Notes: generated from the letters alone by a model not told the origin. 63,069 nucleotides of DNA, filler included, from Reclinomonas americana ATCC 50394 (GCA_048213135.1; 3 parts of 3 records of this genome joined end to end with filler, not necessarily neighbours in it); one strand, 5' to 3'. Counted from the first letter of the whole stretch, positions 13,664 to 23,749 are shown. Program-made: numbers and translations.

Positions 13664-14011
13664 GCNNNNNNNNNNNNNNNNNNNNNNNNNNNNNNNNNNN
13701 NNNNNNNNNNNNNNNNNNNNNNNNNNNNNNNNNNNNNNNNNNNNNNNNNNNNNNNNNNNNNNNNNNNNNNNNNNNNNNNNNNNNNNNNNNNNNNNNNNNN
13801 NNNNNNNNNNNNNNNNNNNNNNNNNNNNNNNNNNNNGGAAATGGGAGGGTGGAAAGAAAACCAGAATGTACAACTGTGTAACTTGGAAAGAGAGAAGGCA
13901 CTGATCAGTCTCTTGACCCTCTCGACGGCGATCGACGTCGAACGGACGAGAGTTGTCAAGCTGGTCCTGTCGGAGCTCTTTTCATCCTCTCTTCTCCTCT
14001 CCAGAGCGCCA

Positions 14012-14414
14012 ATGAACTTCATCGCTCGCCTGTCACAGCGCACACAGTCACTCTTTGCGGCCGGAGCTGCTGCAGTGGTGGGCGTCGCGGCAACAGTGGC
14101 TGGAACGCGCGCAGATGAACATGCCACGTCAGCAACACCAGTGACCGAGCAGCATCCGACCACTGCAGGAGAGGCCGCCAAGGCTGGTGTGTGTGTGAGA
14201 GATTGTGTGTGTAGTGTCTGTTGCTCACTCGTGCTGTGCAGCAACCCCGCCTCCACAGACTGTGAGCAACATTCCGTTCTCTCCGTACTTTGTCGCCGAT
14301 GTGGCGGAAGCGGTGAGTGCGAGCTCTCACAGACACGCACTTCTCTCTCTTTCCTTCTCTCTCTCTCTCACTGTGTATGCGACAGACACTGNNNNNNNNN
14401 NNNNNNNNNNNNAC

Positions 14415-14486
<72 letters not shown>

Positions 14487-15759
14487 GCCTTGCTTGTGCT
14501 CCAGTCCGCTGACTGCGTGTTTGACAGGCTCGGGTTTCCTCATTGACCCTCGCGGCATCATCCTCACCAATTGTCACGTGGCAAAGAACCCGGGCAGTGG
14601 TCGCGGCAAGGTCTTGCAAGAGTCGCCTTTCTCCTCTGCATAGTCTCTGACCTCTTGCATGCCACAGCTCGACGTGACGCTCTCCGATGGTCGCCAGTTC
14701 GACGCGCGTGTGGATTCGTACGACGAGACCATTGACATTGCGGTGTTGCGCATCACCAATCCGCCGCCCAACGGCGACCCGTTCCCGTACCTCGAGCTCG
14801 GCAGCTCGGCTGATGTGCGTATTGGCGAGTTTGTGATTGCGCTGGGGTCGCCGCAAGGCCTGCAGAACACAGTGACCAGTGGTGAGTATGTTCCTTGCGT
14901 TCTCGTGTGTCGTCCAGCAGCTGAAGTGTTGGGGGATACACGTGCGCAGGCATCATCTCCAACCGGTCGCGACACGCGAGTGAACTCGGTATGACCGACC
15001 GCCGTGTCAGCTACCTGCAGACCGACGCTCCGATCTCGTTTGGCAACTCGGGCGGGCCGCTCGTGAACATGCGCGGACAGGTGATTGGAATCAACACGGT
15101 CGTGGTGGTTTCGCTGGGACAGGTATGCGTGTGTGTGGTCTTGTGTGGTGTTCCGTGAGGCGTGCAAGGGATTCACGGTTAATTACAGTTGGGATTCGCC
15201 ATTCCCGCCGATGTTGCCAAGGATGCCATGCGTCAGCTGGACTTGCACGGCAAGGTTCGCCGCCCGTACATTGGCGTCGTGCTGCTGCCGTTGACCACGG
15301 AGCGCGCGCTGTTCGACTCCAAGCGCACATTCGGCTCCAAGATCGCCGACGATATTCGTAATGGTTTGCGTGGTTTCCGTGTTGCTTGCATTGGTCGTCG
15401 TCGTCACCAACGCGAGAGAGATGTGTGTATGTGTGTGTGCAGGAGTGCTGGTGGTCGACGTGGTGGGTGCTCCCGCGAAGCGTGCCGGCCTGATGGCTGG
15501 TGACGTGGTGACTGCAGTGGACGGCAAGCCAGCGTATACCACTCGTGATGTTGCGTACTGCCCCCTTGCTGCAGCGTCGTCGTACGCATCTCCACTCACC
15601 AACTCGTCGTCGCGGTACACGTAGATTCTGGAGAGGGTACAAAGCGTCGGTCAAGAGATGCGTTTCGATGTGCGCCGAGGAACACAGGCACTCCAGTTGA
15701 CAGTCACTGTCGACGAGGAGCCGCCGGCGCCAGTACCGCAACGCAGTCGCAGAAGGTGA
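14012..15759 (+). CDS. HTRA2: HtrA/DegP-family serine protease with PDZ domain (HtrA2/Omi-like)
   Basis: [18 protein letters not shown] (His), DIAVLRI (Asp), [33 protein letters not shown] (Ser); RPYIGV...[28 protein letters not shown] (PDZ); N-terminal targeting/TM-like segment. Confidence 0.9.
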
Positions 15760-15833: not shown

Positions 15834-17384
15834 TCAGACGCGGCTAGGGCCCTTCATGCCAGATCGAACCATGTAACTCTCCTGCTTCAGCAATTCAGCC
15901 TCGCGCTTGTCGTTGGTGAAGACCGAGCTCATCACCGACGAGTGCGTAATCTCCCGCGCTCTGTACGCACGCACGTCCATGCATTGATTTAGTGGTCGTC
16001 GGAGAATCGTTGGCGTGAGAACCAAGTGGGTGTGCCAAATAAAATGCACCCCTCCTATCTCCACCCGCACAACACTCACCTCTCGCTTGCCACTCGAGCC
16101 ATATCGCGCGCCATGTGCATTGTGACGGTCTCCGCAGACCGCGCCGCCGGCTTGCGCTGCTGCTGCTTCTTCTTCTCCTTTTCTGCCCTCCGCGCGGCCT
16201 TCTTGCGCGCCCGCTCGGCCTCGTCCTCGTCGTCGCCATGTCGCGACCGCTTACGCTCCCTGCGCTTCGCCTCCTTGTCCCGCTCCTCGGACGACGTCGA
16301 GTCCTCCACCACCATGCCGGCGGCCGCCACACCGTCCTCCTCCGGCACCTCACTCTTGCGCGACTTTCTGCTGCCCTCACCGTCTGCGGCAATGGCGGCA
16401 GCTGCAGCGGCCGCGGCCGCACCAGCACCACTTGCTGTCGTCGTCGTCGTCGTCGATGACGACGACGATGACGACGATGATGACAATGTCGGCGCAATCC
16501 CATCCTGCGGTGGATTCAACTCCACCACATCGGCACGAGTAAACTCCTTGGAGCACACGGGGCACGGCGACGGCACATCGCCACTGGCCAATCCCATCTC
16601 GCGCAAGCACTTTTCCGACAGCACATGGCCGCACGTGCGAATCACCGAGAAGCTGCGACGACAGCAATGAGACCAGGGTGCGAGGTCACATGCACATGGA
16701 CCTTGCGTGATCGCACTCACCGAAACGTGCCAGTGACCTCCAGCATCGTCATCGGGCAGACGAAGCGCGCCTGATCGTGGAAGGCCTCGCTGGGCTTGCA
16801 GTCGTCGCTGAAGGCGGGGTTGGGCGTGAAGTGGCAATCGATCACATCCTGCGAGAGAGGGATGAGAGAGACGCAAAAGAGAGAACGCACACGCACACAC
16901 ACACACGCACCTTCAGCTTCTTGATGTGACGAAAGGGAGGTGGGTTATCCTTGGCCAGCAGCATGCGAATGACCGAGTCCTTGTTGAAAATGTTGCCAAC
17001 GCGATCACACACAATCGGATCTCTGTTGAGAGCACAAGAGAGAAAGCGAGGAGACAGAGAGCGTGAGAAGGCAACAAGAAGAAAGACAAAGGAAGAGAAG
17101 CGCGCAACTGCAGTGGCTCTTTGCTCAATGCGCAGACACTCCAACGTGTTGTTGCCGCGACTGTGCGATCCTGTGATGAAACACGAAACGCAGAATGAGT
17201 AACACACGCACAGAGGGGAGGAGAGAGAGAGACACACACACACACACCATGCGCTCAGGGGCTTTTCGCTGCGACACAATGAACTTGCGCGCATTCGCAA
17301 TGCTTCCTGTTGCGCGCAGTGAGCGTGTGTGAGAGGGAGTAGAAAGGAGAACACACACACGCACACACCTCCATCGCATCCCAT
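15834..17384 (-). CDS. RTF2: Replication termination factor 2 (RING-like)
   Basis: Diagnostic start MGCDGG-SI; WSVCALSKEPL, IVCDRVGNIFNKDSVI, FVCPMT, CGHVLSEKCL...CPVC, Lys-rich C-terminus. Confidence 0.9.
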
Positions 17385-17475: not shown

Positions 17476-20400
17476 ATGACAGAGTGCGCGTTCAGCACAG
17501 CCGACACAGGTGGCGACACCCCCCTTCTCTCTCACTCTCTCAGCAAGTCACTCACTCTCTCTGTGTGCGATCGCAGGCTGGTTGATCCTGGGATCCGCAC
17601 TGGTGCGCTCCCTTCTCTCTTCTCTCTCTCTGTCTATGCCTCCCACTCCTCGTCACTGACTCTATGTGTTCGCGCGCGTGTGTGTGTGATCAGGTCATGC
17701 TGCAGTCACCGGCGTTGCGCGCGCTCCCTCTCCCTCGAATGCATGTGCGCATCAGTTTGCTAATGCAATTGTCACTGCGCAGAACCGGTCTGCTGCAGGC
17801 CGGCATCATTCGTCGCATGAACTCGTTGCGTAAGAGAGAGAGAGGCAGAGAGATGTGGTGTATGCAGCCTCTCTCTCACGCTGTGGCTCAACTCGTGTGC
17901 GCAGACTGAACATGCTCATGCAATCGATTGCTGGCATGATCCTGGGCGCAATCATGTGGATCACGTTGCGTGCCCTTTATCTCTCGCAGTCGTCTTTTGC
18001 GTTTGTCGATCTCATCGCGTGTGTCATCATACAGCATCGGGTATTCGTTGACTTGTTTCGTTGGCTGCCTCGAGCTGTGTCGCTCTCGTTCTGTGTACTG
18101 ATGATGGGCGATCGCAGTTGGACCCGACCATGGAGGCGTCATTGGCGATTTTTCGCACTTTTTCTTGCATGGCACTGGCGATTGCCACTGGGCTGGTTCG
18201 CCGTCTTTGGCAAGGACTCTCTGTCGCCACTGAATGCTCATCCTCCTTCTCCCGGTCACAGCACCGACGGTGCCGACCATGGCGCTGGTCAATCTGCAGA
18301 TGCAGTTCGCCGCTGTGGCTCCTGTGGTGTGCACGGGCGCGTGGGTACGTGCGCGCACCTCTCGCCATCTCCTTGCAAGAGTGTCTAATGATCGTTGCCA
18401 GGCTGAGAAACTGCACTTTTCCGCGTTCTGTCTGTTCTGCTGCATGTGGGCGCTGGTGGTGTATTACCCAGTGGCGCACTGGGTGTGGGGTGGAGTTACG
18501 AGTGTGGAACATGTTTGAGGAGGGGGATGGTGTGTGTGAGGTGCTGACTGTGTGTGTATGTTTTGTCTGCGATAATCAGGGTTTTCTGCAAACGTGAGTC
18601 ACTGTGCTTTCCACCGCACTCACGCTTCATGCTCACTGACGCGGCGTGATTGTGCACTGCAGGTGGGGCGTTCTCGACTTTGGCGGTGGTCTACCGTTGC
18701 GTAGCAAGTCACTCAACGAGCTGCTGTCTCCTCATGCGTCACTGATAGCTGTGTGTGGATTAACACAGGATTCACACGACCACCGGCACTGCGGCATTCG
18801 TTGTGTCTTTGGTGCTTGAACGCCGCCCGGAGCTGGACGAGTACAACCCTGTCCGTGAGTCTTCTTTCATTGACTGCACCGCTGCTGTGTCCGTGAGGCT
18901 CATCGTCTGTGTGTGTGTCTCCTGGACAGCGCACAACATTCCGGTCTGTGCCTTGTGCTCCGCTTTCCATTGATTGTCTCTCCTCCCTCTAATTTGATTG
19001 CTCTGTGTTCCTGCAGCTGGCTGGTGCGATCTTTCGTGTCATTCACTCGCCCTTCTGTGCTCTCGCTCTCTCACCATGCTGCATGCAGTGATTGGCGGTG
19101 CCTTGACGTGGTCGACTTGGTTTGTGTTCAACGGAGGTTTGTGTGCGTGAGAATGCGCTTTGCATTTGGTCCCCCTCCTCATCACAACACGCAGTTTCGG
19201 GCTACCGCTCGAATACGGTGTCGGTGTTTGCCGGTGCGTTGTTGCCTGATTTGCACTCCCGATCTTCGCGTGCCTCACTGCATGTGCAGTGGCCAACACG
19301 CACATTTCGGCATGTGTCGGTGGCCTCATGTGGCTAATCCTCGCATTCATCCGGTACGCGTGCGCGTCACCGCTTGTGTATGCTTTTGCGAGATCTGTGC
19401 TGAAGTCTCTCCGTCCCACGCAGCACTGACTTTTTCCACATTGTGGAGATTCTGAATGGTGCTCGCCAAGATCTTGTTTGCGCATGTGCATGTGCAGCGC
19501 GAAGGCGCCAACCATTCTTCTTTCTTCTCCACGCAGGTGCACTGGCAGGCCTGGCTGGCGTGACACCGGCGTGTGGCTACGTTACTGTCGGTGAGTTCAG
19601 CAATGGTTGTGCGCGTGTCAATAATCTCCTGCTTTGCTCAATTCCACACAGCGGTGGCCATGATAACTGGCGTGTTTGCCGGCATTGCCGCGTACTTTTC
19701 CGTGTACTTCCTGCGATACAGGTTCCATCAAGTGCATCGTGTTTGCCACTCTAGTGTTTCTGTGCATTTGACATTGTCTGCGCAGAGTGCACGTGGACGA
19801 TGCTCTGGACGTGACGTCGCTGCAGGTTCGTCTCAAGTGCTCCGTGTGTGTGAGTGATTATGGCAACCTGAATCGGTATGCTGCAACAGGCGACTCCCGG
19901 GTTCATCGGGTCGGTGCTCGCCATTGGCTTGTTTGCAACCAAGGACGTGAATCCCGACCTCGAACTCGAGGGAGCATTCTACAGTGGCGACTTTACGCTG
20001 CTCTACAAGCAGGTTCCGCAGCCTCACCACAGTCCACTTGCTTTTTGATGCGTTCACTCACCCCCCGTGGCGCGCAGTTTGTGGGCGTCATGGTCGTGCT
20101 GGTGTGGACGGCCGTGTGGACATACGTGGTGATGAAATTCGTCGTGTGGTTGATCCCGCAGCCATCAAAGCAGGAGATGATTGTCGGTCTCGACAAGCAG
20201 GAGTCTGGCGAGACAGCCTACGATGAAGAGGTGCCGCGTGTCCATGCCCCCGTTAGTGTGACTGACCGATGCTGACATGGTGGCGAACAGGGGCACGTGG
20301 ACATTGGTGAGCAAAGGCAGGAGCTTTCGGATGCGATCGAAGCCGGTAACTTGGACATGGTGGTCAGCCTCATCAAGCGCGGAGTCAATCCTCTGATCGG

Positions 20401-22239
20401 CGACTACGACGGCAACACGGTGCGTCACTGCAATCGCAGATCAATCGATCTTCTGTGTGCTGATTGTGTGACTCTGCGAGGAAGGCATATCATGTGGCGG
20501 CCAAGTTTGGTTATCAGCACATTATCGAGTACTTGCTGACGCTGCCGACGGCCAACATCAATGTGGTCGACCGAACGGGCACCACCCCGCTGACTGTGGC
20601 GCTCAATGCTGGCAACGAGACGCTGGCCGACTGGATGTTGCATAATGGTGCCAGCACGGAGACCTTCAAGTTGGTGAGTGTGCACGCACGCACTGTTAGC
20701 CATCGCGTGTTTCTAGGTGATAACTATTCGATCGCACAGGGAGAGAAGCTGTGCGAAGCCGGTGCTGCTGGTGATGTCGACACGCTGCGGCATTACTCAC
20801 GGACCAGTGCCTTGTTTGGTGAGTATCCATCAATCTTCACTGCAGTGCGGCGAAGTTCTGTCGCTCATCGCTGTCACGCAGTACCGGATCCTGATGGAAG
20901 GTGATTTCGCAGCTATTGCCAGTTGCATGCAGGTGATGAAACTCATGTCTGTGTGATTGTCACTCTGGTGATTTGTGCAGAACTGCGCTACATCTGGCGG
21001 CCGCCAATGTTGCGTCGAGAGTGTGATGTCATCCTCGTGGACGATAGTGATCTCATGATTGCTTTTCACAGGGACACCGAGAGTGCGTCGAGTTTCTGCT
21101 GGAAGGTGAGTGCCACAGCTCGTGTGAAGTTTGTCTCTGTCCTTCTCAACGCGCCCTCTTTACCGCAGCGGGTGTGCCGCCCAACGTGCGCGATCGGTGG
21201 GGAGGCACACCGAGTGACGATGCACGCCGGCGTCAGCATTTGGATATTGTGCAGCTGCTGGCGAGTTCAACGATGCGCATCGCCGACGATTTCTGCCATG
21301 CGGCCGCCGTCGGTAGGCAGTGGTGATACTCGGGGGTGGCGTCGTTCCCACAATCACTCACCACATGACTCGCAGGCGACATGGAGGGTGTGGAGCGATT
21401 TGTCATGAGTGGCGTCGACGTGTTGCGTTCTTTTCTCGTGTGGAGTGCGAGCTTGTGGAAGTTTCTCATCATTTTCTTCTCCTGCAGCAACACTCGTGAT
21501 GCCGATGGTCGCACTGCATTGCATCATGCTGCCTTGTGAGTGTTGCTGTATTCTACCAGAATAGTGTCGTTTTGCTCACTCGCTGTTGTGCATGTCGACA
21601 GCCTGGGTTGCCTTCCTGGTTTGCTAGTCGCCACTTGCCAGTGTTTGGCTGCACACAGCTGTTCTCATTCCACATGCCCCACACAGTGGTCAAGTACTTG
21701 CTCAAGTATGCCGACCCAAATCCGCGCGACCGCTGGGGCAACACGCCACTCAACGACGCCGTTCGCCAGTCCCATGGAAACGTGGCCGATGTTGCGTTGT
21801 TGTAGCATTTGCTCTCATAGTAGTGGTATTGACGCTTTGTGCCATGCACAGGCACTGCGAGCGCACGAAGGCAAACTCGGGTTTGAGAGTGAACTCGCCC
21901 TGCGCAACATTCACGACGATGGTTCGCCGAGTCTCTTCAGTGCTGCGCCATGATGGATGCTGACTGCCTGCGCACACACAGAGTTCACGGAAGACGAGCA
22001 CACGGACAGCTCGGTCATGGAGGTCCGGCTGGTGACGCCGAGCGGCAAGGAGAGCAAGTACAAGACGTTTGGCATGGTGCGTGTAACTGGCTGCAGAGCC
22101 AAATGTGATTGAGACTCCCTCAACTCACATGCGCGCACAGGTGGCCATCAATCCGCGCATCTTGGAAAAGATGAAGCAGAGCAAGCAGCGCAAGAAACAG
22201 CGCAAGCCGGATGGTGAAGAACACGAGATGTTCAGCTGA
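17476..22239 (+). CDS. Ammonium transporter (Amt/Mep family) fused to C-terminal ankyrin repeats; many small exons
   Basis: Amt motifs: DTGWLILGSALVMLQSPA, GIIRRMNSLNMLMQ, QMQFA, AEK, YYPVAHWVWGGG, LDFGGGLPIH, HNIP, WFVFNG, GALAGLAGVTPACGYV, VDDALDV, GLDKQESGETAY. An in-frame 60-nt intron (20231-20290) joins these to ankyrin exons (DYDGNTAYHVAA, DGRTALHLAA, DRWGNTPLNDA). Confidence 0.88.
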
Positions 22240-22500: not shown

Positions 22501-23749
22501 TCACTCGCTGATCGCGTCACGGCGATTGGGCGTCTCGCGCGGACACACCATCATCACCGTCACGTTATCAAATGAGGTCCGTGCACGCAGTGCCGTGTCG
22601 GCCAGCGCGTAGGCCAGACCATCATCGATTTCTCCGCCCGACACCGCCGGTGCGCTGCGCGACAAGTGTCGCTCCATGATGCGAATCACCTGCGCTTCGT
22701 CGAGAGTCTCCCAGAAACCGGAGGAGGCCACCAGGAAGCACACGTCGAGCGGCGTCACAGCAAACTCGACCACATCGGGCTCCGGAATGACAAATGGTCG
22801 CAAGATGTGCATGCCGATGCAGCGCGAGGTCGCCAGGACTCCCTGCGCGTGTCCGACTGGCGAGTTGCCGAGGCCAAACACATTCTCTCGCTTCTTCTTC
22901 TCCACAAATCCCCCGTGAATGCCCGTGATTCGGCCGTGCTCGGCGGGATCGTCGGGCTTGTGTGGTTGGTTGAGGAACACGAGTTCCAACTGCGACGAGT
23001 CGGCCGACTTGAGCCGTATCACAGCCGCTCGACTGTGTGTGTGTCACACACAGACAGAGAGAGAGTGAGTGACGAAAGAGCTGTCGGCGATGCTGGGACA
23101 GACAACACACCTGTCGCCCGTGTTGGCCACAAAGTACCGCGAGCGATCCTGTGTGAACGCCAGCACGCAGGCCGAGGAGCCGACATCGGTGCCGCGTGGT
23201 CTGCTGCCGCTCGGTGCGTTGGCTGGTGGTGGAGCCTTGGCCCTGTAGTGCGCCACAAAGTTCTCGTCGAGTCGCATAATGGCGCGATACAGCGTTTCAC
23301 TACGACGATGATGAGCAGCAGACGCACAACACACACGACGATACACAACGCACCCGACACCGAGCGTGGCGGCTTGATCGAGTGAATCCGCCAGATGTCC
23401 CTGAAAGTTGTCGCGCAGGAACGACGAGCACAAGTCGCCCAGGTGGCCATCAAACACTCCATACACATCTGCACCGACGGTCAATGAAGGAGAGGGAGAG
23501 ATTCGCATTTACATCGCGGAAAGAAAAATGGCGACGAACCAACTCCCGAGAGCGTAAAGTGCACCCACGTGTCTTGCTGTGTGCCGTGCTTCTTGTCGTA
23601 CAATGACGCAAACTGATTGCCGTTCACCGGCGCCAGCGGCCCTCTTGACTGAGGAATCATTATTTATTGTGAGGGTTCAGAGAACCGGGCGAGCTACACG
23701 CACACACACACAGTCCGACACGCACCTGGTTGCTGTTCTGTTGACCCAT
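22501..23749 (-). CDS. PP2C/PPM-family phosphatase-like protein, predicted N-myristoylated, several catalytic Asp substitutions
   Basis: MGQQNS start; YGVFDGH, GSSACV, FVANTGDSRA, HKPDDPAEHGRI, LATSRCIG, VIPEPDV, FLVASSGFWE, SFDNVTVMMV. Confidence 0.85.

Follow-up and report, generated by a model that had tools for sequence, protein, structure and literature searches.

Passages of a paper from 2020 give the fungal exchange of the first histidine for glutamate as the only variation of the twin-His motif in the Amt family (PMC7447429). A predicted gene of Reclinomonas americana ATCC 50394 reads glutamine at the second histidine and continues into ankyrin repeats, and the question is whether this substitution is real, how far it extends beyond the one gene and what kind of pore it leaves. 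The window, i.e. the whole stretch of DNA analysed, comprises 63,069 nucleotides (filler included) from three joined records of the assembly GCA_048213135.1. Positions 17476-22239 on its plus strand are predicted to hold an Amt-ankyrin gene of 37 exons and 778 amino acids in a single open frame, with 36 introns of 56-91 nt, every one GT-AG. Its features are as follows, where clade denotes the His/Gln proteins described below and outside their His/His relatives:

17476..22239 (+), whole Amt-ankyrin gene, 778 amino acids, predicted model; 36/36 splice pairs common to the other haplotype
17476..20230 (+), Amt membrane domain, exons 1-23, AmtB/Mep (Amt2) type by AmtB alignment and PF00909
17703..17705 (+), Gln24 at AmtB Met23, a co-varying clade residue
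17793..17798 (+), Leu31-Gln32 at AmtB Phe31-Tyr32, cytoplasmic exit (role according to passages of PMC7447429 and PMC3647058)
18306..18308 (+), Phe109, equivalent to F107, outer Phe gate, by AmtB alignment
18486..18488 (+), Trp150, equivalent to W148, S1 recruitment site, by AmtB alignment
18676..18678 (+), Asp162, equivalent to D160, periplasmic water-wire residue, by AmtB alignment
18773..18775 (+), His170 (CAC), equivalent to AmtB His168, retained; 44/44 in the clade
19127..19199 (+), F217 (equivalent to F215), N218, Val220 (at G218, codon split by an intron) and Ser221 (equivalent to S219)
19820..19822 (+), Leu319 at AmtB Val317; 44/44 in the clade, 1/110 outside
19823..19825 (+), Gln320 (CAG), equivalent to AmtB His318, second twin-His position
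19826..19889 (+), phase-0 intron of 64 nt directly after the Gln codon; GT donor at 19826, AG acceptor ending at 19889
19896..19898 (+), Pro323 at AmtB Cys321, one turn past the Gln; 42/44 in the clade, 7/110 outside
20291..21875 (+), ankyrin tail of three three-repeat modules, fused directly to the Amt C-terminal motif
21876..22239 (+), C-terminal tail, acidic then basic; stop at 22237-22239

Alignment to E. coli AmtB spanned the full AmtB length, with 123 of 403 aligned columns identical (30.5%), and PF00909 matched the exon at 18402-18494 with 30 bits (cut-off 23.2); homologs reached 294-343 bits. Domain family (Amt2-Mep, PF00909) and register are the same as in E. coli AmtB, A. fulgidus Amt-1 and fungal Mep2, with which the window protein has in common the S1 site, the Phe gate, D160, His168, W212, T273 and the D309-D313 motif, whereas it differs from them by H318Q, M23Q, a small residue at F31, Y32Q, V317L, C321P and nine ankyrin repeats fused to the C terminus. 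A preliminary description of the locus had placed the CAG codon at His318 and read the first His, W148, the Phe gate (F107, F215) and S219 as retained. The alignment bears out each of these assignments, with Gln320 on His318 and His170 on His168, and D160, W212, N216, T273, D309, D310 and D313 are kept as well. Two changes are specific to this gene, namely G218V (19136 and 19195-19196, adjoining S219), at a position that is Gly in 43/44 clade members, and F103L (18294-18296, S1 region), at a position that is F or Y in 42/44; together they may mean a lower ammonium affinity of the window protein. Neighbouring genes encode a PP2C phosphatase (22501-23508, minus strand), convergent and directly downstream, an Rtf2 RING protein (16076-17100, minus strand) and an HtrA-type protease with a PDZ domain (13664-15759, plus strand).

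The glutamine could in principle stem from a wrong splice model, a sequencing error or a decaying pseudogene, a case we regard as extremely improbable. The second haplotype (contig C285), 94.6% identical over 4.7 kb, keeps the CAG codon and all 36 splice pairs, and its exons are gap-free. Differences between the haplotypes affect 1.6% of exon positions vs 7.2% of intron positions, and the codon changes are 34 synonymous and 3 non-synonymous (pN/pS 0.028), by which the gene is under purifying selection. The intron 19826..19889 diverges between the haplotypes and its flanking exons do not; its retention shifts the frame, and no His-restoring junction in open frame was found among all GT/GC-AG pairs tried at 19790-20012. 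A paralog on contig C294 without an intron at this site reads DDALDVTSLQG, with the codon CAA, and was aligned by HMMER to AmtB 307-319 without gaps, placing Q on H318; a third paralog (C12/C2929) has the same Gln motif. Dozens of independent intron-free homologs share the Gln, which also argues against an artefact. The His-to-Gln substitution is confirmed as real, with no splicing artefact, and the window gene as intact. All three Gln genes of the genome retain the first His and encode an ankyrin tail; the two beyond the window gene are:

G000:C12:64.4-68.9 kb (L039), His/Gln Amt-ankyrin paralog, second haplotype copy on C2929
G000:C294:57-63.5 kb (L044), His/Gln Amt-ankyrin paralog, second haplotype copy on C301

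Many of the intron positions in these two paralogs look common to the window gene. The 17 distinct Amt/Rh genes examined in the genome comprise 3 with Gln, 12 with His and 2 with the site hidden by an intron; the total is at least 17, the matches on about nine further contigs lying outside this count. The nitrogen-handling repertoire of the genome is large, with glutaminase matches on 12 contigs, several of them as haplotype pairs, beside the Amt/Rh genes, and on C10/C122 one glutaminase gene and an Rh-type gene are about 18 kb apart. A canonical AmtB-like gene at G000:C1:414141-415328 (L001) is intronless amid an otherwise intron-rich genome and possibly reflects a co-assembled bacterial contig or a transferred gene.

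Is the glutamine an oddity of this genome? Homologs were sought with a 104-aa paralog exon among 1.84 billion representatives by HMMER, which found the family; a word-indexed search with the same exon gave no scoring match. At site 318 the best 150 matches have 105 His, 36 Gln, 1 Phe and 1 Tyr, with 7 unaligned there, counts which are not family-wide frequencies because the query favours Gln-type matches. Ankyrin motifs occurred in 16 of these 150, all 16 with Gln. The Tyr and Phe belong to single Amt fragments (P0148, P0054). From 289 proteins, 152 covering most of the Amt domain were kept and, with the window protein and AmtB added, comprised 110 His/His proteins without ankyrin, 38 His/Gln proteins with and 6 without it, and no His/His protein with it; after removal of six within-cluster members and AmtB, the representatives numbered 109, 32, 6 and 0, respectively. 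A link between the Gln and the ankyrin fusion, which the preliminary description had suggested looking for, is thus seen in 32/38 His/Gln vs 0/109 His/His representatives.

Named His/Gln members are Andalucia godoyi ANDGO_05825, Savillea parva, Paramoeba aestuarina, Incisomonas marina and Reticulomyxa filosa, spanning a jakobid, a choanoflagellate, an amoebozoan, a stramenopile and a foraminiferan; a further record, under the name Chloroparvula japonica, is similar to that from Paramoeba and may stem from contamination. Their database names are generic, and the ESM Atlas yielded generic Amt clusters only. Searched for as a DNA pattern, the Gln motif occurred in 46 metagenome stretches, in one contig among 185,579 prokaryote species and in no viral contig. 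All 46 metagenome stretches score as Amt on the profile; 36 have downstream ankyrin motifs, 7 continue for less than 750 nt past the Amt part, and 3 show no ankyrin motif in 2.5 kb downstream.

Across these proteins the substitution is not one gene's oddity but part of a signature of about ten pore positions, read from the alignment together with published descriptions of AmtB. The entry half of the pore is conserved in the 44 His/Gln domains (D160, H168, W212, N216, S219 and T273 in 44/44; W148, F107 and F215 in 43/44), and Gln at 318 is fixed in all 44, at identities as low as 37%; neither a return to His nor a third residue was seen. V317L (44/44) and C321P (42/44) mark the clade further. 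Among rows with an N terminus, position 23 is Gln in 32/36 His/Gln and Met in 106/106 His/His proteins; position 31 is Ala, Thr, Cys or Leu in 36/36 vs Phe in 106/106; and position 32 is Gln in 36/36, whereas the 106 His/His proteins have Glu (96), Tyr (9) or Gln (1). I110M was found in 39/44 His/Gln domains, with Val in the window protein. M23 and I110 we take to be pore-lining positions. In AmtB, I28, V314, F31 and Y32 form the second hydrophobic region on the NH3 path (passages of PMC7447429), and F31-V314 is a constriction (passages of PMC3647058). Asn at S263 is present in the window protein and also in 99/110 His/His relatives. Like the Glu-His pair of fungal Mep1/Mep3-type proteins, the His/Gln pair is a natural, clade-wide departure from twin-His; there an acid replaces the first His, whereas here that His is kept and a neutral amide takes the place of its partner. 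Glu at the first position was absent, with His in 44/44 His/Gln domains.

The trees contain the window protein but neither the C12 nor the C294 paralog. In a tree of 63 rows, the His/Gln proteins form one side of a single branch (SH-aLRT 100), and in a tree of 50 rows with the 23 signature columns removed and a careful search, the clade was supported with 100/98. Its members are mutually 37-90% identical, and the closest rows beyond the clade belong to His/His Amts, archaeal-type ones among them. Thaumarchaeal-type and protist His/His Amts share a branch with the clade (100/99), are 38-43% identical to the query and have the LEAG/LQAG helix-1 pattern and Asn263 of the clade, but, unlike it, they have twin-His, Glu32, Phe31, Met23 and no ankyrins. 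Four of the ankyrin-less His/Gln members, whose ends are short and look natural, group as a subclade (100/97) in which the Gln pore signature is kept; the other two ankyrin-less rows look truncated or partial. Because the clade has one origin, the Gln-ankyrin link is a single event and not a statistical correlation. The window protein is the most divergent of the His/Gln rows, with an end branch of 0.72 (P0063 is similar at 0.75), and since it also has F103L and G218V it may differ from the rest of the clade. Judged from these trees, the window gene is a member of an old, widespread protist Amt subfamily of single origin.

The ankyrin tail begins about 10-15 residues past the Amt C-terminal motif, and Pfam Ank, Ank_2 and Ank_4 scored above cut-off on the exon at 20485-20673. 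Behind it, an FG..NP-basic motif (22059-22176) resembles, by eye, how the C294 paralog and the members of the ankyrin-less subclade end. For the tail of the Andalucia member, the ankyrin-bearing channels SKOR and NOMPC were among the natural proteins in the PDB matches listed. Plant SKOR/AKT1 and NOMPC are likewise transport proteins with cytoplasmic ankyrin repeats, but their membrane domains are unrelated to Amt. The ankyrins of AKT1 are bound by a kinase, and GlnK gates or localises AmtB from the cytoplasmic face. In the RhAG-ankyrin-1 complex of red cells, ankyrin is reportedly a separate protein, whereas it is fused in the window protein. One idea considered was that the tail might be of the ankyrin type found in glutaminase and might dock a glutaminase, several genes for which occur in the genome; it was set aside as unproven. 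No glutaminase-type ankyrin module was found in six glutaminase loci (each covering part of a gene), and the best 60 PDB matches listed for the tail included no glutaminase.

The single prokaryote match (L057, G001:C27) lies on a 610-kb contig of a gammaproteobacterial metagenome-assembled genome and is 97.7% identical over 4.6 kb to an independent metagenome contig (L073). The two copies are:

L073:403-4779, intronless His/Gln Amt-ankyrin gene, intact, 828 aa
L057:904-4959, intronless His/Gln Amt-ankyrin gene, frameshifted

The frameshift in L057 may be a sequencing error or decay. Divergent from the Amt gene on both contigs lies an integron integrase (TIGR02249, 455 bits, cut-off 265), and an attC-like hairpin downstream of the gene has an 86% identical copy upstream. 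In the tree the cassette gene is sister to L069 (100/98), inside the group holding Incisomonas (95/88) and nested among eukaryote-type rows; the ORF adjoining the L069 Amt gene looks, by eye, like a bromodomain protein. The simplest reading of this placement, and a likely one, would be transfer from a protist to a bacterium and capture as a gene cassette. Downstream, the same cassette has a second ankyrin-module remnant broken by a stop.

What such a pore does can be approached through engineered proteins, for which Ala and Glu mutants serve as proxies because no His-to-Gln mutant was found in the published passages. According to these passages, AmtB H318A supports yeast growth on ammonium and single second-His mutants match wild-type growth on 3 mM ammonium (PMC3647058), AmtB H318A passes K+ (PMC7447429), and Mep2 H348A/E transport ammonium and are the most efficient K+ passers but lose filamentation signalling (PMC9040831). 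The preliminary description had expected ammonium binding with altered or absent transport, or changed selectivity, fitting a sensor. Altered transport or selectivity stays plausible; absence of transport does not agree with second-His mutants that still support growth on ammonium and leak K+, with signalling lost in those of Mep2, and a sensor role is weakened by receptors that keep both His, by a receptor signature missing from all 44 domains and by the four-member subclade that keeps Gln without ankyrins.

We give about an even chance to a regulated ammonia channel, in which ammonium would be recruited and ammonia conducted via a rebuilt inner pore with no second-His relay, the ankyrin tail being regulatory or for docking. 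W148, S219, F107, F215, D160 and H168 would capture and deprotonate NH4+ as in AmtB, and the Gln amide would stay hydrogen-bonded to His168 and pore water without proton uptake or release. As the amide is unable to exchange a proton, tautomer switching of the His pair is predicted to be lost and transport to be electroneutral or uncoupled from H+. Without Phe31 and Tyr/Glu32 the exit would be opened and neutralised rather than turned into a cation site, so that the inner pore would be more polar and probably wider, and a partner on the ankyrin modules at the cytoplasmic face may gate or localise the channel. This reading is put forward because second-His mutants transport, receptors keep both His, the N1/N2 signature is absent and Glu32 is replaced by Gln. 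It is also favoured by the purifying selection on the gene, by the three genome paralogs keeping the first His with Gln, by conserved entry and co-varying exit residues, by the intact 828-aa cassette copy in a bacterium, where eukaryotic ankyrin partners would be missing, by the ankyrin-less subclade with the pore signature and by SKOR and NOMPC among the PDB matches listed for the tail of the Andalucia member. Against it, at least 12 other Amt/Rh genes of the genome have His, so uptake needs no window gene and a non-transport role fits equally; ankyrins were found on His/Gln proteins only, which suggests a functional coupling of the tail to the pore change; and Asn at S263 occurs as in the sensor Sd-Amt1, though also in most of the His/His relatives. 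Passages of PMC11152129 describe this Asn as narrowing the exit of Sd-Amt1.

A non- or barely-transporting receptor, capturing ammonium with the intact entry half, holding it among the new glutamines Q24, Q32 and Q320 and passing the conformational change to ankyrins that recruit a signalling partner, appears unlikely to us but deserves serious weight. The fusion confined to the clade, with a tail starting shortly past the Amt motif, would suit it, as would the plentiful canonical transporters of the genome, and bacterial fused Amts are receptors, with further types expected outside cluster 2 (PMC11152129, in part). Ks-Amt5 (with a His kinase) and Sd-Amt1 (with a diguanylate cyclase) resemble the window protein in an Amt core with a C-terminal cytoplasmic module, loss of Tyr32 and Asn263. 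However, in the passages available both receptors keep both His and have Glu at 32 as the N1/N2 ligand (PMC11152129, PMC10433425), whereas the clade has Gln there and the window protein has neither the His pair nor the N1/N2 signature with its Glu ligand nor a catalytic output, its ankyrins being non-catalytic. The signature, given as QX6EX15NX2D[F/T]X54-60TX2[S/T] (PMC11152129, in part), was found by pattern scan in 0/44 His/Gln and 0/110 His/His domains, a set without a positive control. The ankyrin-less subclade retains the pore signature, and Mep2 second-His mutants lose signalling rather than gain it (PMC9040831, passages), which also speaks against a receptor. A changed substrate, i.e. 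K+, hydrated cations or a small neutral polar solute beside or instead of ammonium, we judge improbable. The K+ currents of AmtB H318A and the top K+-passing rank of Mep2 H348A/E point that way, as do three added Gln and the loss of Phe31, which make for a more polar pore, hydrophilicity in AmtB tracking loss of selectivity in the published passages; yet all residues that recruit and deprotonate ammonium are conserved, Gln, in contrast to the Ala and Glu of the mutants, is neutral and similar in size to His, and the co-varying residues may restore selectivity. Least probable of these functions is that Gln simply stands in for His318 in an otherwise ordinary ammonium transporter whose tail is accessory, for which we see little chance: wild-type-like growth of the single mutants would allow it, and with a single clade origin the co-varying residues could be shared history and not function, but a relaxed site would be expected to drift, and the Gln is fixed in 44/44 domains.

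Neither a second-His-to-Gln Amt nor an Amt-ankyrin subfamily was described in what the literature searches covered, figures and subscription papers lying outside their scope, and term look-ups in the accessible text of the PMC11152129 supplements, PMC6652019, PMC10794816, PMC4814505 and PMC10433425 returned neither. The term "Ank" is absent from two text supplements of PMC11152129, whose Fig. 7B of fused-domain types could include ankyrin, and the Amt-ankyrin fusion itself may be listed somewhere already. The His/Gln Amt subfamily is real, conserved and apparently undescribed. The boldest reading, to which we give a little less than an even chance, is that of a very old, undescribed eukaryotic Amt class in which a three-glutamine inner pore would replace the twin-His relay. 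Such a class would either be the first case of a eukaryotic ammonium receptor coupled to ankyrins or form a natural Amt channel that is electroneutral or K+-permeable, and a bacterial integron would have acquired it from a protist in the form of an intronless gene cassette.

The His/Gln clade contradicts the published generalisation, as worded in the passages of PMC7447429, that only the first His varies. The role of the twin-His motif, be it proton relay, selectivity filter or signalling, is the central open question of the Amt/Mep/Rh mechanism and has so far been studied via engineered Ala and Glu mutants, on the premise of natural first-His variation only. A His/Gln pair fixed across several eukaryotic supergroups together with compensating pore residues is a natural experiment on this question, with built-in controls in the ankyrin-fused and ankyrin-less members and in an intronless bacterial copy, which should express easily. 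The clade may thereby reveal how free-living protists sense or release ammonium.
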